From Octopus vulgaris (lineage: Eukaryota): 64,000 nt of DNA. The stretch covers positions 92,876,001 to 92,940,000 of the forward strand of contig OX597814.1 in NCBI GenBank assembly GCA_951406725.2, given 5' to 3'. The notes under the pieces are model-generated. The model worked only from the letters and a program-made list of their open reading frames with translations. It had not been told where the DNA came from and ran no database searches. This document shows positions 10,448 through 62,498 of the stretch, one piece after another. Position 1 is the stretch's first letter. Each line of letters begins with the position of its first letter. The position numbers and the translations under genes are program-made.

Positions 10448-10485
<38 letters not shown>

Positions 10486-12031
10486 ATAAATCTCTAAGCG
10501 AGGTATAAACAGTAACTGCTCTGTAATATAAGCGGGACCAGCCATCTGAATGTGGCTAGGGACAGGGCGGGGTGGTGGAGGTGTTACTGATGCATTTAGC
10601 CCCAGGCGACTATAGACGTCACCAGGAGAGCCAACACCATCACGGTGTCCTTGCTAGCCTGCAGAGGGAGATCAGCCTCCCCGAAGATACGGATGCTACA
10701 CACGGACCGGTTTCGAGGTGGTCGCCTCTCGTCAGCGCATGGCAAGCACCGTTCTTCGTTGAGGGACTTCCTCTACAGGTTAGAAATATATAGATTTTCA
10801 CTGTAAACACAGTCACTGGCGTCGAAAATCTGTTCGATAACAATAATAAATCTCTAAGCGAGGTATAAACAGTAACTGCTCTGTAATATAAGCGGGACCA
10901 GCCATCTGAATGTGGCTAGGGACAGGGCGGGGTGGTGGGGGTGTTACTGATGCATTTAGCCCCAGGCGACTATAGACGTCACCAGGAGAGCCGATACCAT
11001 CACTGTGTCCTTGCTAGCCTGCAAAGGGAGATCAGCCTCCCCGAAGATACGGATGCTACACACGGACCGGTTTCGAGGTGGTCGCCTCTCGTCAGCGCAT
11101 GGCAAGCACCGTTCTTCGTTGAGGGACTTCCTCTACAGGCTAGAAATATATAGATTTTCACTGTAAACACAGTCACTGGCGTCGAAAATCTGTTCGATAA
11201 CAATAATAAATCTCTAAGCAAGGTATAAACAGTAACTGCTCTGTAATATAAGCGGGACCAGCCATCTGAATGTGGCTAGGGACAGGGCGGGGTGGTGGGG
11301 GTGTTACTGATGCATTTAGCCCCAGGCGACTATAGACGTTCCCAGGAGAGCCGACACCATCACGGTGTCCTTGCTAGCCTGCAGAGGGAGATCAGCCTCC
11401 CCGAAGATACGGATGCTACACACGGACCGGTTTCGAGGTGGTCGCCTCTCGTCAGCGCATGGCAAGCACCGACGAGAGGCGACCACCTCGAAACCGGTCC
11501 GTGTGTAGCATCCGTATCTTCGAGGAGGCTGATCTCCCTTTGCAGGCTAGCAAGGACACCGTGATGGTGTCGGCTCTCCTGGTGACGTCTATAGTCGCCT
11601 GGGGCTAAATGCATCAGTAACACCCCCACCACCCCGCCCTGTCCCTAGCCACATTCAGATGGCTGGTCCCGCTTATATTACAGAGCAGTTACTGTTTATA
11701 CCTCGCTTAGAGATTTATTATTGTTATCGAACAGATTTTCGACGCCAGTGACTGTGTTTACAGTGAAAATCTATATATTTCTAGCCTGTAGAGGAAGTCC
11801 CTCAACGAAGAACGGTGCTTGCCATGCGCTGACGAGAGGCGACCACCTCGAAACCAGTCCGTGTGTAGCATCCGTATCTTCGGGGAGGCTGATCTCCCTT
11901 TGCAGGCTAGCAAGGACACCGTGATGGTGTCGGCTCTCCTGGTGACGTCTATAGTCGCCTGGGGCTAAATGCATCAGTAACACCCCCACCACCCCGCCCT
12001 GTCCCTAGCCACATTCAGATGGCTGGTCCCG

Positions 12032-12080
<49 letters not shown>

Positions 12081-12297
12081 AATCTCTGAGCGAGGTATAA
12101 ACAGTAGCTGCATGACATCGTGAAGTATATTTGCCACTTAAATGTGGCTAACCCTTTAGGGTCGATGCTACTGTAGCTTGTAACCCCAGGAGGCACAGAA
12201 AGTGTGTCAATAGCCAGGTGGAGGAGGTGTCCTCCTGAGGCTACAAGCTACCGTAGCATCCACCCTTAAGTGTTAGCCACGTTTAAGCGGCAAATAT

Positions 12298-12349
<52 letters not shown>

Positions 12350-13118
12350 CATACATATATATACACACACGCTTTAGTAAGTTTGTAACCCAGAAAGAGT
12401 AACAAAATAGACACTATTCTGTGAGTGAGTGTGTGTGCATGTGCGTGCATATCTACATGTGTGCGTGTGTGTCTTTGTGCATGCTCATGCATCTAAAGTA
12501 CTTGTTTTGTTAAGTCAAAATGCAGCAGTTGTTACAGAAAGAGAGACTGGGGGTGAAGCAATAGAAAAATCAAGGCAACAAATATGTGGATATGGTAAGT
12601 AATGTTACAATCACCCAAATATAAATGTACTTTTATTTCTCTTTTGTACACTCAAACATTTATGTTCACATGCTTGAGAAGACACATCGAGCTGATTAAA
12701 ATTGAGGTCGTAGCTGGTGCCAGTGCCATGCGAAAGGTATCCATGCTAGTAACACGTAAAAAGCACCAGTGCCAATGACATATAAAAGACATCTGGCACA
12801 CTTATAAGGTGGTTGGCATTAAGAGGGGCATCCAGCTGTAGAAACCAAAACAGACTGGAACCTGGTTCATCTCCTCAGTTTACTAGCTCCAGTCAAACCA
12901 TCTAACCCAGCGTCTCTCAACCGGGGTTCCCTGGAACCCAAGGGTTCTGCAAAAAGTTCCTAGGGGTTCTGCGAGAAAGAGTGAGATAAGTTAATGCTAA
13001 TTTCTTGAATGTAATATTACTATACATGTACAACATATTATTGGTTATTGTAATTGTAATATTGTAATATAGACATCATCCTATCTAACCCATTATGATT
13101 ATCAAAAAAATATAACAA

Positions 13119-25039: not shown

Positions 25040-25897
25040 AAAATCAAATCAAATCAAATCAAACCAAATCAAAATAGATGAACATCAATGGAATTTGTAT
25101 CTTTGTGGTACCAGTACCGGTGGCACGCAAGAAAACCATCCGAACGTGGCCGTAGCCAGTACCGCATCGACTGGCCTCTGTGATGTGGGCACATAACAAA
25201 CACCATCCGATCATGGCCGTCCGCCAGCCTCATCTGGCACCTGTGTCGGTGGCACATAAAAACACCAACCGAAGACCCGGCAGGACTAGTCAGGCCATAA
25301 CCCGTGGCCCCTACCTGGGACGTAGTCAGTCCACCTGTGCATACCTTCCTTCTTGTGACACTTGTGAAGACCTGTTGAGGCAAGTGAAAATCAAATCAAA
25401 TCAAAACAAATCAAAATAGATGAACATCAATGGAATTTGTATCTTTGTGGTACCAGTGCCGGTGGCACACAAGAAAATCATCCGAACGTGGCCGTAGCCA
25501 GTACCGCATAGACTGGCCTCCGTGCTTTGGGGACGTAACAAACACCATCCGATCGTGGCCGTCCGCCAGCCTCATCTGGCACCTGTGTCGGTGGCACATA
25601 AAAACACCATCCGAGCGTGGCCGTCTGCCAGCCTCGTCTGGCACCTGTGTCGGTGGCACATAAAAACACCATCCGAGCGTGGCCGTTCGCCAGCCTCGTC
25701 TGGCACCTGTGTCGGTGGCACATAAAATCACCCACTACACTCTCGGAGTGGTTGGCGTTAGGAAGGGCATCCAGCTGTAGAAACACTGCCAGATCTGACT
25801 GGCCTGGTGCAGCCTTCGGGCTCCCCAGACCCCAGTTGAACCGTCCAACCCATGCTAGCATGGAAAACGGACGCTAAATGATGATGATGATGATGAT
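25040..25897 (+). repeat. Tandemly amplified composite SINE-like repeat with (TGA)n tail, ~340-bp outer and ~60-bp inner repeats
   Basis: aatagatgaacatcaatggaatttgtatc at 25073 and 25415; ggcacctgtgtcggtggcacataaaa repeated; tail ggaagggcatccagctgtagaaac...catggaaaacggacgctaaatgatgatg. Confidence 0.8.
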
Positions 25898-27025: not shown

Positions 27026-29160
27026 CAGGACTGGCTCCTGCGTTATATCAAAGGTTTATTACTTTACGTATATCGGGCTTAAGTCGCCAGTTATTTCTGT
27101 TTAGTTCATTCAGATTCGTTTAACACTCATTGCAGAGATTCTTTTGTTGTTCTTTCACCGGAAGTCCTTTTCATTGCTGACCAACTTCCTAGCTAGCCCA
27201 CAGCGAAGTTCCTGTCTACAGTTCGCCTGTCATGAATCCTACCCTACATAGCTCCTCCACCCCACAGAACTGCTGACTCTCATTGGAAATGAGAAGGCGT
27301 TTTAACTGTCCTGCCCATGCGTGTGGTTACTCGATTCTTTGGTGGCTGTTTCATGTCAAGGGTTGGTGTGATCTGCCTAGGGCGGCCCCTGTTTGATGGC
27401 TGGGCTACCTGAACGGGGAGATGGACTGGTTTCACTCTATCGTTGGAGACTGTGTCTTGTCATCCACTAATTAGGAGTTGGAATGTTTTATCTCCCGGAT
27501 GTGACTTGATATGGACCATCGTGGGATGGCTGGAGGGGTTTTCGTCATCTGTCACGTCTAACGAACACAAAGTTAGCCGTGTGGAGGTCATTTGGTATGG
27601 ATGATCTGGGTGTATCGTGTGTCGACATGGGAGCAGGGCGCAACTGGCCCACGCTGTCTCTCAGTTGAGCAAGGTACCTTTTGACATCCAGGTCTGACTT
27701 CGTATTCGGAAGGAACTTTCCTGGCACTGTTAGAGGGGCATCATACACTATTTCCGCGGAGCAAGTGTTGAGATTTTCTTTTGGGGCAGTGCGGATTCCC
27801 AGCATCACCCATAGGAGTTAGTCAATCCAACTTGGCCCATTAAGTCTGGTTGTCAGGGATTCCTTCACTAATCCATTGGTCTGTGGGTGGTAGGCTGTTG
27901 TGCGGTTCATTGTGATTCCGAAAAGGTCACACATGTCGTTCAACAGCTTTGAGGTGAACTGTGGACCCCGATCGGATGAGATGCTGTCTGGGACACCGAA
28001 ACGGGTGACCCAGTTTGAGATGAAGGCTCAGCTGGCTTCCTGTGTTTCCGTGCTGTGGAGAGGGATAGCCTCAGGCCAACGGATATAGTGGTCTATCAAA
28101 GTCAGTAGATGCGAGCAACCCTGTGAAGATGGTCTATGTTGACATAGCTGAATCGAGTCTGAGATGGTTCATAGTTGCCGAGGGGTGCTTTGGTGTGTTG
28201 ATGGACCTTGGTTTGTTGACAAGGGATGCAGGCCCTGGTCCAGTCCCCGATTTACTTGGCCATACCGTGCCAGATAAATTTGCTTGACAGCATCCGCCAT
28301 GTGGATTTAGTACCTGGGTGGGAAAGTCCGTGAATGACGTCGAAAATTTTCTTGCGCCAGTCTGATGGGATGATCAGTCGTGGCTTTCCAGTGGGTTGTG
28401 CCGTTAAAGCCAAAGTGTACATCCTGCAAAGAAAGTGATGTAATGGCAGTGCGGGAGGCCCTGATCTTGTCATCTGTCTGTTGGGTTGCAGCCATAGATT
28501 CATAATCCAAGCCTTCCGTTTTTGGTGCTAAGTAGGGGTGAGAGCAGGTAGGAGCACGAGAGAGTGTATCGAAACTGGGTCCAAGCTGACATATGAGGAT
28601 GGAACAGCATGGTTGCTTGGGCCAGGGCTTGTTTTTTGGATTCGAAGGCTGAAGTCATTGTACTATCCCACTCCACCTGTCTTTTTGAACCCTCTTTTGA
28701 CAGTGCCTTGTATAGAGGTTTCATCACTCTTGCTGCAGAAGGGATGAAGCAATGGTAAAAGTTTACCATGCCCACAAATTGATGTAGAGCCTTGCTTGTA
28801 GTTGGGGCATGGAAAGAATAGGATAGCTTTCACTTTTTCTGGCAGGGTGTAGCGCTGGCACTTGTGATTCAATGTCTTAAGAAGTCGATTTCTGTCGCAC
28901 TAAAAACGCATTTGGCAGGGTTGATTACTAAAGCATACTGTTCCAGCCTATCAAAAAGTGTTACTAGGTGCTTCTTATGAAGCTCTGCATTTTGGCCTGC
29001 AATAAGGATATCATCTAAGTTTGCAAATACAAAATTGAGACCTCTGCACAGTGTCCATGAGGTGTTAGAAGGGTTGTGCTGTGTTTTTCAGCCCAAAGGG
29101 TGTACGTGCAAACCAAAAGGAGTGATCACAGCGGTTTTTGGTACATCATCATCTTGTAAT
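27025..29160 (-). mobile_element. Degraded Ty3/Gypsy (CsRn1-like) retrotransposon: RT, RNase H, integrase, PPT and 3' LTR
   Basis: DDVPKTAVITPFGL, LDDILIAG, GMVNFYHCFIP, IHGLSHPGTKST, SDRGPQFTS, LGIRTAPKENL. Purine tract followed by TGTAGGG at 27248; AATAAA near 27055. Many frameshifts. Confidence 0.88.
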
Positions 29161-29163
29161 GGT

Positions 29164-30002
29164 ATTACAAGACATACCTGCAGCTGCATGTGGCTGAGAG
29201 ACTGTGGAAATATCAGCTGGTAAGGTATAAGGGACGGACGTACTGCCTGACCAGGTTGGGATTCAGGTTGAATTCAGCACCGATGATTATGGCGACAATT
29301 CTCAAGACCATCATGGGAAAGGCTGACAAAGTGAAAAGAGCCACCAATTCCTATATCGATAACATTCTGGTGGATGAGAGCATAGTGTCGGCAAAAGAGG
29401 TCATAAGCCACCTGAAGAGTTTTGGGCTAACCGGAGACAATGGAGGGAGGAGCTGCCCTGGGACTCAAGCTACGGAGAGACAAGGCTGGCGTGTTAGTGT
29501 TTCAGAGAGGGAATGAGATCCAAGAACTGGGTTTAAAGACGAGCAGGCAGGAACTGTTTTCTGTGTGTGGGAAGCTGCTGATGACACTACCCGATTGTAG
29601 GATGGCTCTGGACGGCATGCAGCTTCATCAAGAGGTGAGCTGGAGTGAGGTGGAGTGATAACGTGGGCGAGAAGACAACCGCCATAATGCAAGACGTCTT
29701 GGAGAGGGTGACTGCGGAGGACCCAGTAAGAGGAAACTGGTATGTGCCCAAATTGAAGAAGGGGATTGTGTGGTGTGATGCCAGCAGCATAGCGACGGGA
29801 GTTGTCCTGGAAATTGGAGGTGTCGTGGTGGAGGATGAGGCCTGGCTTAGGAAGAAGGACGACTGCAACCTCATCAACGTGGCGGAGCTCGATGCCGTAC
29901 TGAAAGGGCTGAACCTGACCCTGTGGTGGGGGCTGCGTACCATCGAGATTCGGACCGATTCAACTACTGTACATAGGCGGGCGGGATCAGTGATCACAGG
30001 CA
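29164..30002 (+). mobile_element. Second Gypsy-type pol fragment (RT and RNase H) in opposite orientation
   Basis: YLQLHVAERLWKYQ...YCLTRLGFRLNSAPMIM...SYIDNILV; WCDASSIATGVVLE...INVAELDAVLKGL...TDS. Confidence 0.8.
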
Positions 30003-30299
30003 ACCTTCAGTCTTTTATTACTATCTATTTGAATATACTACAAATGAAGTGACTTCTATTGAAAACTGGTATTTCTAGTTTTTGCAACACTTTTGAATAG
30101 GTTATTGTATGCTAACAATTGGTTTTATGATTATAGCTTTTTTACAAACATACATGAATACATTTTTGTGTGGTGGACTATTCGTAAAGCTATTAAATCT
30201 CTTAACAACAACAAATCATTTAATTTCAAGATATTCCAAACAGTTTTTCAGCTTTATCATTTACATTGTTTGACAATGTTAATAAACTAATGTATTACA

Positions 30300-30933: not shown

Positions 30934-31640
30934 TTACAGCACTTCACGATAGACAACGTTCGTTGTTCTTCCAGATGGAGCCAAAGCGAATAGGTTGTTC
31001 TGACTACCGACTCGGGAACATCCAACGTATAATTGTCCATGTAAGAAACATGGCTCCTGCAAATGAAGCCCTGCCACAGATAATGTCTGACCCTGTGATT
31101 TGTTTATGGACATGGCAAATGCAACACGTAGGGGAAACTCTGTCCTGAAACAGTAGGGTGCATCAGCTCCTGATGTCGTAAGTATAATCTTAGTTATTAA
31201 AACGCCCTCTCCCTTTCCACAACCGGAAAGAATTTTAGCATAAATGTTATCTGTTATTTTAGTTATTACAAGCTTTGTTCCGTTACAAAGCTTAGGTGGA
31301 GTGATATTTCTCAGAAGAATAACGGGACATCTTTCTTTGAGGGACAGTTGATGTTGAGGTAGCCCGGGAACATCAAGATCATTCAGATATTCAATTGTAA
31401 ATTTGGTGTCATCACGCCGGTCTACATTTGAATTAACTGACGTAAATGTTCTGATATTTCCAGGAAGGCTTTCAAGTAGCTGTTCATTTATACTGGAAAT
31501 AATAGCATTTGTAGGAGCTAATACAGCCCTTTCACATAGCCAATTGTGATTTCGGCAATTCTGTTGAATGTTTGGAAAAACGGATGCCTTTAGATCCTCT
31601 ACATTTTCAACCACCTCTTCGATGAAAACAAGCGAAATAT
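30934..31640 (-). mobile_element. Helitron RepHel PIF1-helicase C-terminal fragment
   Basis: WLCERAVLAPTN, GLPQHQLSLK, PVILLRNITPPKLCNGT, FPLRVAFAMSINKSQGQTL, HGQLYVGCSRV, TTNVVYREVL*. Confidence 0.92.
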
Positions 31641-32892
31641 ACACTGCCAGAAGTTCTTGTTGACAAACAACAGCAGTAATTTTATTCAGCTGAATACACG
31701 TCATTGATTGGTTGAAATTACTGAAATAGGCCAACTTTAACGTGAAATAACTTCGTAAATATAAGCTTTTCTCAAAAACGCTAAGAGTAAAAGATGTTTT
31801 ATATGACACATTCTACCAGTGTCCGAAATTTTAAAGTGTTTAGTTTAAAAAAATCATTTTTTAAATCTGTCGGTCAAAAGGTAAAGATCCAACAGATGTA
31901 AAACAACATGTAGTAAACGAAAATGGAAAAAAAAAATGCACGCTGATGAACGGGGAGAGGACTCGGAAAATTCACGCGATCAGTCTCACAGGATCCGAAA
32001 ACTCAACATTAACACCCGGTCACAAAAATGAAAAAAAAAAAAAATAGTGTAATAGGTGTAAAATAATGTGTAGTAAAAAAGAATTGCGCTGACGAACAGG
32101 GAAATGGCGAGAGGACTCGAACTTTCCCGATGTGAATTTTCCGAATTGTTCCCCCCCCCCCACTCACGTTCGCCAGTGCACATTTTTTTTTTCATATCTG
32201 TTTACTACGTGTTATTTTACACCTATAGCACTTTTTTTTTTTCCTTTTTGCTCAGGTCAACATGGATACGAAGAAAAACTGCACCGCATCCGTCCAGAAC
32301 CGCCGAAATGGCAAGAGTGGAGATGCAAGCCTTCAACACTGCGATTAATGGAGTGCCAAAACTTTTCTTTTGTAGGAGGCAAGAACATTCAAGAAAACCA
32401 TATCATGAGTTTACTCATGGTGTCTGACCGAGTGCCTAGCAGTTAAGCTTCTAATCACAACTATGCTGTCAATGACATATCAATATCATACAGTGTTGGA
32501 CAGTAAGCTGGCAGAATCGTTAGCACATCAGTCAAAATATTTAGTAACATTTCATCTTCATCCATCTGTATGTTCTTAGTTCAAATTCAGCTGAGATCGA
32601 ATTTGCCTTTCATCCTTTCAGAGATCAATAAAATAAGACCCAGTTGAACATTGGATTAGATGCCCTCCCCCAAAATCTGAAATGTATTATACAGAATCTG
32701 TATCTGTGTTAATTTTCATGTCATATACCAATAATAAAGCTTTCATGAACTTTTAATTCTGAGATTTTTATATTAATACAGTTAATTCGTTGTTAACAAC
32801 TAACAGTATGTGCAATACACGTTGTTTTATGAGATTTCAATGGCGCATTTATTCATTGAATAATTTGGAAGTATTTGGTTTGTGTAATATAT

Positions 32893-34118: not shown

Positions 34119-35266
34119 CATCATCATCATCATTTAACGTCCGCTTTCCATGCTAGCATGGGTTGGACGGTTCAACTGGGGTCTGGGGAGCCCGAAAGCT
34201 GCACCAGTCCAGTCAGATCTGGCAGTGTTTCTACAGCTGGATGCCCTTCCTAACGCCAACCACTCCGAGAGTGTAGTGGGTGATTTTATGTGCCACCGAC
34301 ACAGGTGCCAGACGAGGCTGGCAGACGGCCACGCTCGGATGGTGTTTTTATGTGCCACCGACACAGGTGCCAGATGAGGCTGGCAAACGGCCATGATCGG
34401 ATGGTGTTTGTTACGTGCCCACAGCACGGAGGCCAGTCGATGCGGTACTGGCTACGGCCACGTTCGGATGGTTTTCTTGTGTGCCACCGGCACTGGTACC
34501 ACAAAGATACAAATTCCATTAATGTTCATCTATTTTGATTTGTTTTGATTTGATTTTATTTGATGTTGATTTTCACTTGCCTCAACAGGTCTTCACAAGT
34601 GTCACAAGAAGGAAGGTATGCACAGGTGGACTGACTACGTCCCAGGTAGGGGCCACAGGTTATGGCCTGACTAGTCTTGCCGGGTCTTCGGATGGTGTTT
34701 TTATGTGCCACCGACACAGGTGCCAGATGAGGCTGGCGAACGGCCACGATCGGATGGTGTTTGTTACGTGCCCACAGCACGGAGGCCAGTCGGTGCGGTA
34801 CTGGCTACGGCCACGTTCGGATGGTTTTCTTGTGTGCCACCGGCACTGGTACCACAAAGATACAAATTCCATTAATGTTCATCTATTTTGATTTGTTTTG
34901 ATTTGATTTTGATTTTCACTTGCCTCAACAGGCCTTCACAAGTATCACAAGGAGGAAGGTATGCACAGGTGGACTGACTACGTCCCAGGTAGGGGCCATG
35001 GGATATGGCCTGACTAGTCTTGCCGGGTCTTCGGATGGTGTTTTTATGTGCCACCGACACAGGTGCTAGATGAGGCTGGCGAACGGCCACGATCGGATGG
35101 TGTTTGTTATGTGCCCACAGCACGATGGCCAGTCGATGCGGTACTGACTACGGCCACGTTCGGATGGATTTCTTGTGTGCCACAGGCACTGGTACCACAA
35201 AGATACAAATTCCATTGATGTTCATCTATTTCGATTTGATTTGATTTTCACTTGCCTCAACAGGTC
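34119..35266 (-). repeat. Second tandemly amplified copy of the composite SINE-like repeat (~330-345-bp units, about 3 copies)
   Basis: tttcacttgcctcaacagg at 34571, 34915 and 35246; reverse complement of the 25040-25897 family. Confidence 0.85.
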
Positions 35267-38047: not shown

Positions 38048-38180
38048 CTAGACAGCATGAGATGGAACTTTGATAGGCTTTAATGCATCCACTTGCCAAG
38101 CCCGGATGTTTTCAAGAGCTTCATTTAATTTGTTGCACCATAAAATGCGTTCTTCTTTGGTGTCTGCAGATAACATATGT
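38048..38180 (-). CDS. ANLN: Anillin last coding exon ([29 protein letters not shown]...AV*)
   Basis: ttttcag acceptor, PH C-terminal helix, TAG stop. Confidence 0.95.
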
Positions 38181-60683: not shown

Positions 60684-62302
60684 TTCCAATGGAGCCATGG
60701 TGCCAATTCTTTGCAGGGGAGGTACAAAATCACTTAAATTGTAACTCTCAACAAGCCAAAGAGGAATCCTCTATGTTGTTGCTCAACTTACTAGAAGTAG
60801 CAGTCAAATCTCCCTCAAACTATACTTTATTGCCTTAAAAAAAACATTGCCAATGCAGTCCATTGCATAAAAGTAAATATATAAAAACATTCACAGCTGG
60901 AATGCTTTTGATGAAGGCAAACTTAGGATAAACATCAATTCTAATTATAATATACAATATTAATTGATGAAAAAGTAAGAAGACACTCACCACAGTGTTA
61001 TCTTTTAAGATACCATTATGCCATCGATTTTCAAGTACTTTCAGCTCAGCCATTCGTTCCTGTCGAATTTTTTCAGCCATTGAATGAGTGGTGGTACTCT
61101 GTTGAGTTTCAAACAAGCGCTGTTGAATAGCTTTCATGGCACAGCTGGCTTTTGAAGGGCTCAGAGGCTTAGATTTAGATTCAATAGAATTGGATCTGAC
61201 AACAGGAGATTCGAATTTCCTTGACATTCCAGGAGATTTGGGAATATTTGCAGACACTGGTCTCGAAGGTGTTGTAGTAGGACAAGGTAATGTAGTACCT
61301 TTAGGCTTAATCATTTTGTTGGATTCAGTACTCCCACTGGCAGTCACCTGTTCCCATGCAGACATGCGAGCATTTACTGGATAAGCAGTTGGTTCTTTCT
61401 CAGTCACCGCTTCAAGAGTGTTGACTTTCTTTTGCCATTCAGCCATTCTTTTAGAAACCGACTGGCTTGTTGGTTCAAAACTCTCACGGCGCTTGTTACC
61501 CTCTTTATTTCTCATATTTACAGGTTCAGCTGCAGGAGTATTATGTGTTGCTGATGATGGTACACTAGACGATACGCTGTTAATCTGCACTGAAGAAGAA
61601 CCTGATGACTGGGAAGACTGTTGATTGCTAAATGCAGATCTGTTTTGTTTTGGTGTAGATGAAATCCCTAGGCTCTTCTCAAGTTGAGCAACTTTTGATG
61701 ACAAGTTCTGGCTGCATCTATTGCCCATAGGGGTAATGGTTTTAGAATTTGGCTGAGTATTTTCACTTTTAGAAGGACTTGCTGGACTTACACAGTTAGT
61801 TTCTGTTGCAGATACTTTCTTTGACCATTTGGCCAATCGCTCAGAGACTGGTTTGTTAGTTGGTTCATCATCTGTGGTTTCTCCTTGAGTAAAGGAATCA
61901 TTAAGCCCCCGAGCATTAACAGGTATTTCACTTGGAATATCCTGCAAATGGTCTTGACCACTACCTTTGGCAGTATAAGGGTTCTTTTTGTTGTTTCTTA
62001 ATGGCTTCTGCTGCCTTGACATTGTCTCAATAGCTGATTCTAAGTCATCACCTGGAATAAAACGTGGAGCAACAGGTGCTGGAGATCTTGGAGTATATGA
62101 AGGACCAGGAGACTTTGAACGCACTGGCAGAGGTGTTGCAGGTGCAGATGCCATGGGTGCAGCAGATTTGGAGCGAGGAGACCTCATATGAGGGGCCACT
62201 GGAGCAGCAGTCCTTGACCGAGAATTTCTAGTTTCCAGTTGCCCCTCAGTAGTCATTGGTATGTCACGTTCCCTGTCAACTAAATGAACTGAGTTGGGTC
62301 GA
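38048..62302 (-). CDS. ANLN: Anillin (actin/myosin/septin/Rho scaffold of the contractile ring), spliced gene, 5' end not identified in window
   Basis: Fifteen GT-AG exons with consistent phases. They contain diagnostic anillin segments: [26 protein letters not shown]...[20 protein letters not shown] (RBD), [13 protein letters not shown] (C2/AH), [26 protein letters not shown]...[16 protein letters not shown] and [17 protein letters not shown] (PH). Stop TAG at 38048-38050. Confidence 0.95.
38330..38502 (-). CDS. ANLN: Anillin PH exon ([11 protein letters not shown]...CARPNTFEM...)
   Basis: ctccag acceptor, gtatgt donor; within ORF 38248..38520. Confidence 0.95.
39244..39431. mobile_element. 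hAT MITE with 8-bp TSD
   Basis: cagtggttctcaac / gttgggaaccactg; TSD ctctttag/ctctatag. Confidence 0.8.
39685..40100 (+). mobile_element. RTE-like LINE fragment
   Basis: [13 protein letters not shown]...[34 protein letters not shown]. Confidence 0.75.
40544..40651 (-). CDS. ANLN: Anillin PH exon ([36 protein letters not shown])
   Basis: tttccag acceptor, gtaatt donor; highly conserved anillin PH motif. Confidence 0.96.
42483..42569 (-). CDS. ANLN: Anillin exon ([17 protein letters not shown]...SGFL)
   Basis: ttcatcag acceptor, gtaagt donor, phase 0 to 0. Confidence 0.92.
43551..43663 (-). CDS. ANLN: Anillin exon ([18 protein letters not shown]...FTMDR)
   Basis: ctttcag acceptor, gttagc donor, phase 1 to 0. 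Confidence 0.88.
45483..45552 (-). CDS. ANLN: Anillin polybasic exon ([23 protein letters not shown])
   Basis: attacag acceptor, gtaagt donor; polybasic loop of the anillin C2 region. Confidence 0.88.
46598..46770 (-). CDS. ANLN: Anillin C2/AH exon ([17 protein letters not shown]...[10 protein letters not shown])
   Basis: tcttcag acceptor, gttagg donor, phase 1 to 0. Confidence 0.92.
48375..48613 (-). pseudogene. Partial duplicate of the anillin 46598-46770 exon 3' end plus its downstream intron
   Basis: Aligns with about 46407-46633; shares atttcatagagctccaaagtaacttgaaattttga exactly; donor changed from gttagg to tttagg. Confidence 0.85.
49731..49886 (-). CDS. ANLN: Anillin exon ([15 protein letters not shown]...[16 protein letters not shown])
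   Basis: atttcag acceptor, gtaggc donor, phase 1 to 1. Confidence 0.92.
50442..50580 (-). CDS. ANLN: Anillin RBD exon ([24 protein letters not shown]...HKLLLIA)
   Basis: tattttag acceptor, gtatgt donor; anillin Rho-binding helical motif. Confidence 0.92.
51457..51583 (-). CDS. ANLN: Anillin exon ([13 protein letters not shown]...SILERIK)
   Basis: ttaacag acceptor (alternative in-frame AG 6 nt downstream), gttagt donor. Confidence 0.85.
53207..54100 (-). mobile_element. Tc1/mariner transposase remnant interrupted by a SINE-like insert
   Basis: [19 protein letters not shown] motif near 53760-53825; [24 protein letters not shown]. Confidence 0.75.
54634..54764 (-). CDS. ANLN: Anillin exon (NKRGSHLL...[13 protein letters not shown])
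   Basis: ttactag acceptor, gtaatg donor, phase 0 to 2. Confidence 0.9.
56518..57016 (-). CDS. ANLN: Anillin acidic exon
   Basis: tttacag acceptor, gttagt donor, phase 2 to 0; overlaps ORF 56290..56934. Confidence 0.85.
58125..58425 (-). CDS. ANLN: Anillin exon with polyproline tract
   Basis: cctctag acceptor, gtaagt donor, phase 1 to 2; within ORF 58121..58447. Confidence 0.85.
58933..58969 (-). CDS. ANLN: Anillin 37-nt micro-exon ([12 protein letters not shown])
   Basis: ttgcag acceptor, gtgagt donor; supplies the phase 0 to 1 change required between neighbouring exons. Confidence 0.8.
59405..60228 (+). mobile_element. Mariner remnant with long inverted ends
   Basis: [20 protein letters not shown] at about 59975-60035; 59405-59600 is inversely similar to 60050-60228. 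Confidence 0.75.
60991..62302 (-). CDS. ANLN: Anillin large exon, low-complexity Ser/Pro/Thr-rich N-terminal region
   Basis: 1312-nt exon inside ORF 60835..62358; poly-T tract plus ttag acceptor, GTG|gtgagt donor. Confidence 0.9.
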
Positions 62303-62498
62303 CTAAATAAGCAAAAAAAAAAAGAAAAAAAAAAGAAAAGAATCATTATGTCTGACACTTAAGACTTATATTTTTTCAAATATTTTTAACATATGTTGTT
62401 TTGTAGCATTATTTTAATATTTTTAACATATGTAATTCTGTTTGCATGGTTTGAATATATCTGCAAATTCAGACACTTACATAAATTTTTAAAGAACT

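Follow-up and report, generated by a model that had tools for sequence, protein, structure and literature searches.

The octopus window analysed here (64,000 nt of the Octopus vulgaris genome) harbours at 10482..12033 an insertion that very probably represents a non-autonomous Penelope-like element (PLE), i.e. a non-LTR retrozyme of the octopus genome, which would have moved by the stepwise route set out below. It belongs to a family (hereafter family A) which, judging from the copies compared, is dispersed, young and non-coding; this agrees with the initial annotation, which had assigned the sequence to a young, non-coding, retrozyme-like class with a PLE link and a type I hammerhead whose stem III is palindromic. 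Mobilization of family A by PLEs is very probable because the insertions combine two arms with two distinct 3' ends (A and B), target duplications and ends at (TA)n, and because coding PLEs display the same anatomy. The inverted two-arm anatomy is the strongest evidence for such mobilization. Mussel retrozymes of 350-390 bp (PMC7229834) and a tie between retrozymes and PLEs (bioRxiv 10.64898/2026.07.22.740005) are already known; as far as our literature search reaches, family A extends retrozymes to octopods.

Anatomy of the insertion

The locus comprises two tandem arms of opposite orientation, with RNA-sense 3' ends facing outward and (TA)n on both sides (Table 1). A 360-bp repeat period extends over 10482-11471 on the minus strand (2.75-2.8 copies, 98% matches), and the same 360-nt repeat sequence occupies 11472-12033 on the plus strand, its orientation reversed. 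Hence, of the single tandem array originally proposed for 10482..12033, the head-to-tail order applies to 10482-11471, whereas the remaining 1.6 units form an inverted arm. The other structural claims of the initial annotation stand: the 360-bp monomers are near-identical, TA tracts lie on both sides and there is no credible ORF, the longest ATG ORF being 30 aa in sense and 67 aa in antisense orientation. A TATATA-like box at monomer positions about 50-58 (near 10784-10792, minus strand), directly 5' of the long stem I rod, is found in both family A and its sister family B and is a candidate promoter; a scan with bacterial promoter models, which are irrelevant here, found nothing. Rfam miRNA matches at the locus were rejected as artefacts of the inversion hairpin and TA tracts. 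The separate family B insertion on the right has the tail at its left end only and lacks the hammerhead.

Table 1. Features of the insertion and its surroundings, in window coordinates
Feature	Position	Strand	Details
(TA)n target microsatellite, left side	10449..10481	.	
Arm A, 2.75 head-to-tail 360-nt monomers	10482..11471	-	3' end at site A (monomer position 360); 5' truncated at position 91
44-nt 'tail' between end sites B and A	10482..10525	-	37 nt common to sister family B
Type I hammerhead 1	10693..10750	-	C3 at 10735; predicted cut 10705|10704; palindromic 6-nt stem III
Type I hammerhead 2	11053..11110	-	predicted cut 11065|11064
Type I hammerhead 3	11413..11470	-	predicted cut 11425|11424
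Inversion junction, two 5'-truncated arms meeting	11457..11472	.	real overlap ~1 nt; BLAST over-extension gives 15
Arm B, 1.6 monomers, no tail	11472..12033	+	3' end at site B, a fixed point (about 312-316 of the monomer)
Truncated hammerhead at junction	11472..11511	+	lacks 5' strand of stem I and core start; C17 at 11499
Type I hammerhead 4	11814..11871	+	C3 at 11829, C17 at 11859; stem III palindrome lost through one change
(TA)n target microsatellite, right side	12035..12077	.	
Separate sister family B insertion	12078..12301	.	two short inverted 3' arms (12123-12193 / 12231-12301)
(TA)n beyond family B copy	12302..12363	.	

Predicted hammerhead ribozymes

The hammerhead motif has the core CUGACGA, a 4-bp stem II, GAAA and GUC, a stem I of 6 bp plus 5 bp, and a 2-bp stem III formed by a six-letter palindrome. 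All core residues are present in four hammerheads (three on the minus strand, one on the plus strand), and the three on the minus strand are consecutive and intact; a fifth is truncated at the junction, so that the earlier assertion of a complete type I hammerhead in every monomer applies to four of the five. On the minus strand C17 falls at 10705, 11065 and 11425, a spacing of exactly 360 nt as had been claimed for the cleavage sites, and the position of C17 at 10705 confirms where the first cut had been predicted.

The covariance-model check that had been suggested gave no support: Rfam models produced no hammerhead match at the gathering score or at E up to 10, and none for family B at E up to 1. 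Thus, the hammerhead assignment rests on motif, fold and covariation. The fold z score is -2.73 for the hammerhead region and -2.98 for the monomer taken from cut to cut, both ends of which are brought together on the long stem I rod. In 19 hammerhead sequences of families A and B, 96.6% of stem cells pair, and 5 of the 17 stem pairs display double-sided changes, exceeding all slid controls, although these changes are not independent events, since they mostly reflect one split between two related families. Taken together, the fold z scores and stem covariation indicate that the predicted hammerhead structure is not due to chance. Across the 40 family A loci described below, stems II and III and GAAA are free of locus-fixed variants, whereas loop II has three variable sites. 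According to the energy model, the double hammerhead has -35.7 kcal/mol, compared with -27.2 for two monomers without stem III and -15.4 kcal/mol for two monomers with a single stem III pair.

Family A insertions across the genome

In the 2.8-Gb genome, the best 40 of 1591 candidates yielded 135 family A matches on many contigs, and the full-length matches among them are 93-100% identical. Since these 40 loci were chosen as the best matches to the window copy, they are skewed to young, long, A-ended copies. Their 3' ends are found at two places, site A (monomer position 360 +/- five) and site B (315-320), and 52 of 64 adjoin (TA)4+. Two complete inverted arms make up 24 of the 40 loci (21 clean, 3 with a small extra piece), and without exception their two 3' ends differ, one being at site A and its counterpart at site B, ~44 nt further upstream; in all 24 the tail of about 44 nt is present on one arm alone. 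None of the 40 loci is an A+A or B+B insertion, the others being 13 single A, 1 single B and 2 A plus fragment, and none has an LTR layout. All four A+B loci situated in unique DNA have target duplications (13 bp in L003 and L194, 12 bp in L021 and L191), which implies that both arms result from one event.

The arms reach up to about six units. Among the 21 clean junctions, as defined by BLAST ends, 13 have overlaps of 1-6 nt and another 2 stand at 11 and 15, with 2 flush and 4 gapped; the value of 15 is an over-extension at the junction of the window copy itself. Junctions are near-symmetric in 5 of the 24 A+B loci. Arm B is longer than arm A in 7 of the 24, and fold-back self-priming was therefore rejected as the sole source of arm B. 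Twin priming in L1 elements gives 5' inversions with two outward-facing 3' ends, a target duplication and short junction overlaps. By contrast, the same sequence is present in both octopus arms, each copied from a fixed site of its own. L1-style twin priming on one linear RNA, which predicts A arms that stop at site B, was rejected because not a single one does (0/24).

One further locus, L230 (G000:C4:141582500-141592400), has an identical insertion with its flanks on either side of an N gap and is likely an assembly duplication.

Sister family B

Family B has a monomer of about 358-360 nt with 61% aligned identity to family A. It carries a type I hammerhead of its own, in which stem III is again palindromic, and shares the 37-nt tail. 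An inverted arm is found in 13 of the 29 family B loci that were read (L032-L060, out of 2315 first-look candidates), and 11 of these arms end at 312-317. Family B looks older and more abundant than family A. An old family B-like inverted insertion, L199 (G000:C8:94088021-94091050), is flanked by sequence that recurs in contigs of two sequencing runs from two organisms, and is possibly part of a host transcript. The loose end that follows the tail in the two runs was considered as a coding element and rejected, being traced to this single old insertion.

Proposed mechanism and nature of the template

In the route that we propose, tandem units would be transcribed, and neighbouring hammerheads would pair through their palindromic stem III into a double hammerhead that cleaves at GUC. 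The resulting 360-nt monomers, their ends brought together on the long stem I rod, would be circularized by a host ligase. A PLE RT/GIY-YIG protein acting in trans would then bind the conserved tail region, nick the two strands of an AT-rich target with a stagger of about 12-13 bp, and prime a first cDNA at site A and a second at site B. The length of each cDNA would vary, reaching about six rounds at most, and their truncated ends would then be joined, often through an overlap of 1-6 nt.

Several of these steps have counterparts in published work. Frangieh et al. reported nicking and extension of both strands of AT-rich DNA by a purified PLE protein, with two start sites of reverse transcription that delimit the tail (PMC11167929); by analogy, the tail at 10482..10525 is a putative recognition and RT-start region. 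An inverted 5'-truncated copy and a tail of 30-40 bp, often at one end alone, are described as hallmarks of PLEs (PMC8557442), and circles were proposed as templates for more-than-unit copying by Cervera and de la Pena (PMC4209133; PMC7229834).

The monomer haplotypes bear on the template. Units differ by 1.1% within loci and by 3.1% between loci. For the 31 variants found in at least 4 loci, every covering unit has the variant in 159 of 181 locus-variant cases, the arms of one locus agree on subfamily variants in 104 of 114, and in L180 and L191 locus-private variants are common to both arms. Furthermore, two or more cut sites (maximum six) lie within 17 of the 64 arms, and 5' ends are scattered, with 3 of 64 falling within about 10 nt of the cut site, a pattern that one pass over a cut linear monomer cannot produce. 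The homogeneity within loci and the multi-site arms fit one monomer that was copied several times over, for example a circle, and on this basis we lean towards a monomeric, circular RNA template. Beside 124 singletons, 18 variants are common to some but not all units of a locus, and a six-unit arm (L012:825-2717) has private variants with a period of three; such partly shared variants would not arise from a monomer circle alone and fit either a multimeric template or later duplication or conversion.

One subfamily carries a natural change in the hammerhead core, G8A with C3 unchanged, in all covering units of 5 of the 40 loci and in one arm of a sixth (L182, L183, L185, L188, L193, L209), together with about a dozen linked variants; one of its arms has three units. 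G8A alone would leave a hammerhead nearly dead. Our search found no literature on G8A combined with C3U. The natural core variant on record is the paired U3-A8 (PMC4209133), and in a PLE hammerhead G8C abolishes cleavage, yet insertion in vitro is unaffected (PMC11167929). As a core G8 change can thus kill the ribozyme and spare insertion, cleavage and circles may be dispensable. Accordingly, the G8A subfamily would have spread either because cleavage is not needed or because wild-type RNA cuts G8A copies in mixed dimers.

The same data can be read, at less than even probability, as PLE mobilization from a template that is not a circle, either uncut multimers or a linear monomer with template jumping; the hammerhead would be optional, and homogeneity would stem from short, homogeneous source arrays or conversion. 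The presence of G8A in 5-6 of 40 loci and the periodic, partly shared variants are in line with such a template, as is the finding that PLE uses unprocessed RNA in vitro and that hammerhead mutants insert normally (PMC11167929). However, subfamily variants fixed mostly across both arms (159/181) are hard to obtain by read-through of ageing arrays. Moreover, the contrast between the invariant stems II, III and GAAA and the variable loop II, as well as the covariation of stems between families, speaks against this reading, and cleavage of G8A RNA by wild-type RNA in a mixed dimer would take away the force of the G8A argument. The preferred circular template can be elaborated into double-primed rolling-circle RT by a PLE dimer on the 360-nt circle, begun at two fixed sites, each used for one strand, with G8A as a dead cheater cut in trans and with structural recognition that does not involve a sequence-matched partner. 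This would explain the tail, tandem and inversion by one mechanism; we offer this fuller scheme tentatively.

Coding Penelope-like elements and search for a partner

The octopus genome encodes young autonomous PLEs, namely, open frames of 781 aa and 775 aa with RT and GIY-YIG matches, in many near-identical copies; the RT matches are just below the Pfam cut-off. Based on the C-terminal endonuclease and a cysteine linker, we label these coding PLEs 'Neptune-like'. Of 30 3' ends of the coding RT+GIY-YIG family, 17 have a tail of about 26 nt and 13 have none. The 775-aa family (L141-L170, e.g. G000:C3:5855242-5861227) forms tandem units of about 4.27 kb and inverted pairs, with a second frame upstream of the RT frame. 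It is very young, since the amino-acid identity rounds to 100% for each of the 76 copies scored. Ahead of its two 3' ends lies a hammerhead-like motif in which the core is changed. The order of hammerhead, site B, tail and site A in this family parallels that of family A, except that an ORF comes after site A.

Family A itself has no RT or GIY-YIG ORF. The search for a coding partner drew on a GIY-YIG profile search (148 matches from 150 of 6136 candidates; 30 + 20 loci read) and also took in a Poseidon-like fragment, the 775-aa family and a third GIY-YIG-like family beside L209, read in parts of its units, the fragment of which has no Pfam match. The third family (L240-L268) gave 14774 first-look candidates, and its copies have in common more than 1 kb of TA/TG-rich sequence that follows; it may be a source of the microsatellite-like DNA of the genome.

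In a partial sample of 138 PLE endonuclease loci from several families, none carries the family A tail as its own end. Matches to the tail or monomer occur near these loci in two places, L096 and L156, and both are independent family B copies inserted into TA tracts past the PLE's own end; other tail scores are at shuffle level. The exact tail pattern has 247 matches in the genome against 0 in the control, and at 21 further tail-bearing loci (from the first 100 of the 247 matches) a PLE ORF is never part of the element. The genome-wide check suggested at the outset thus recovered dispersed copies and no coding partner with the tail (0/138). Given the partial sampling of PLE loci, a coding partner may exist, or recognition may be structural.

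These results also bear on whether the arrays could be orphan pseudo-LTRs, i.e. truncated ends of an autonomous, coding PLE. The resemblance of the family A end layout to that of the 775-aa family, where an ORF succeeds site A, is compatible with this origin, as is the partial extent of the genome search. In family A, however, the next monomer begins at position 1 directly after site A, in ORF-free series of up to six units, none of the 40 loci has an extension shared past either end (45-nt flanks), and the two tail matches near the 138 PLE loci are separate family B insertions. An apparent 4.5-kb pair at L230 was rejected, being a duplicated flank across the assembly gap. An origin from orphan pseudo-LTRs is therefore very improbable; in the 40 loci and the 21 further tail-bearing loci the monomer does not occur solely as the terminal repeat of a coding PLE, the arrangement named in the initial annotation as the one that would reduce it to an ordinary terminal array. 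Least probable is a local satellite that expanded by unequal crossing-over, with the inversion arising during DNA repair at a fragile (TA)n tract. The tandem units, the TA tracts at either side and some periodic variants agree with it, but the copies are dispersed on many contigs and have variable 5' ends, and the two fixed 3' ends and the 12-13-bp target duplications in unique DNA contradict it, so that a pure satellite was rejected.

Host gene context and other repeats of the window

The array had been described as intronic, which our analysis leaves unsupported. Exon 60835-62358 is a 99% match to Octopus sinensis anillin, a gene on the minus strand with 13 exon matches within the window (38051-62301) and 3 beyond it; its coding region ends at 38051, 26 kb from the array. 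Among 124 ORFs scanned in window positions 1-38000 and in the preceding 8 kb outside the window (a repeat and complexity filter left 125, of which 121 were included, plus three others; the remaining four were scanned in overlapping form), we found transposon domains, one sub-threshold IBR match and nothing else, and a homologue search for the IBR match yielded none. Short exons or a UTR intron are possible.

Other repeats of the window include a dispersed 343-bp tandem repeat with 62-bp subunits (34335-35247 and 25069-25873; also in L071 and L231), of which the copy at 34335-35247 has a hammerhead core on neither strand. Broken LTR-retroelement pol pieces (RT, RNase H, integrase) and a fragment of a Pif1-type helicase, probably derived from a Helitron, are found at 27821-30049 and 30934-31812.

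Relation to known retrozymes and Penelope-like elements

Family A is similar to the 350-390-bp non-LTR retrozymes of Mytilus in being a short, dispersed, non-coding tandem monomer with a type I hammerhead in each unit, and to metazoan non-LTR retrozymes in its monomer length (360 bp, within their range of 150-450 bp), in the hammerhead motif of consecutive units (three here, at least two being required) and in having target duplications of more than 4 bp and PLEs in the same genome (PMC7229834). It differs in that most long octopus insertions consist of two inverted arms with two fixed ends, whereas the word 'inverted' is absent from the main text of that paper. Furthermore, the GC content of 50.3% (one monomer) is at the upper edge of the retrozyme criterion of GC <50%, and cleavage and circles were shown for those retrozymes but are predictions for the octopus family. 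Xenopus retrozymes are likewise described as non-autonomous PLE derivatives with tandem hammerheads, and 8 of 9 of their dimers did not cleave in vitro (bioRxiv 10.64898/2026.07.22.740005). In that study, which sampled no mollusc, the PLE link comes from sequence similarity and co-occurrence; here it comes from insertion footprints.

Neptune, Poseidon and Naiad PLEs share with family A partial tandems, an inverted 5'-truncated copy, a tail at one end, (TA)n or AT-rich targets and a hammerhead upstream of the 3' end (PMC8557442; PMC11167929). Unlike them, family A has no RT/GIY-YIG ORF, its tail is 44 nt rather than 30-40, and its sequence matches none of the coding PLE families sampled in the octopus genome. 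The non-autonomous PLEs of Chlamys (such as MRC1) also form multicopy head-to-tail insertions, but their 3' ends are generally similar to those of an autonomous family, and they belong to a clade described as lacking canonical hammerheads (PMC8557442), whereas family A has a hammerhead and no coding partner for it was found among the 138 PLE loci.

In Octopus vulgaris itself, 31 recently active Penelope-like families were described in a paper on its repeats, the main text of which does not contain the word 'ribozyme'; the repeat library of that study may hold family A unnamed (PMC13282606). No described octopod retrozyme was found in the literature covered; the supplement of PMC7229834, outside this coverage, could list cephalopods.

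Implications

As for how retrozymes enter genomes, PLEs have been named as a strong candidate, and no more (PMC7229834), and mechanistic work has been called for on tandem, inverted and tailed PLE insertions (PMC8557442). Family A offers a 360-nt substrate with many young insertions, a strict rule of one A and one B end, a measurable stagger and a natural core mutant; the end rule, the stagger and the mutant make the circle model directly testable.

The two-armed copies are 0.1-0.9-kb inverted repeats, and read-through transcripts would therefore form double-stranded RNA. Octopus RNA undergoes heavy A-to-I editing, and double-stranded RNA from two-armed copies would be of interest in this respect.
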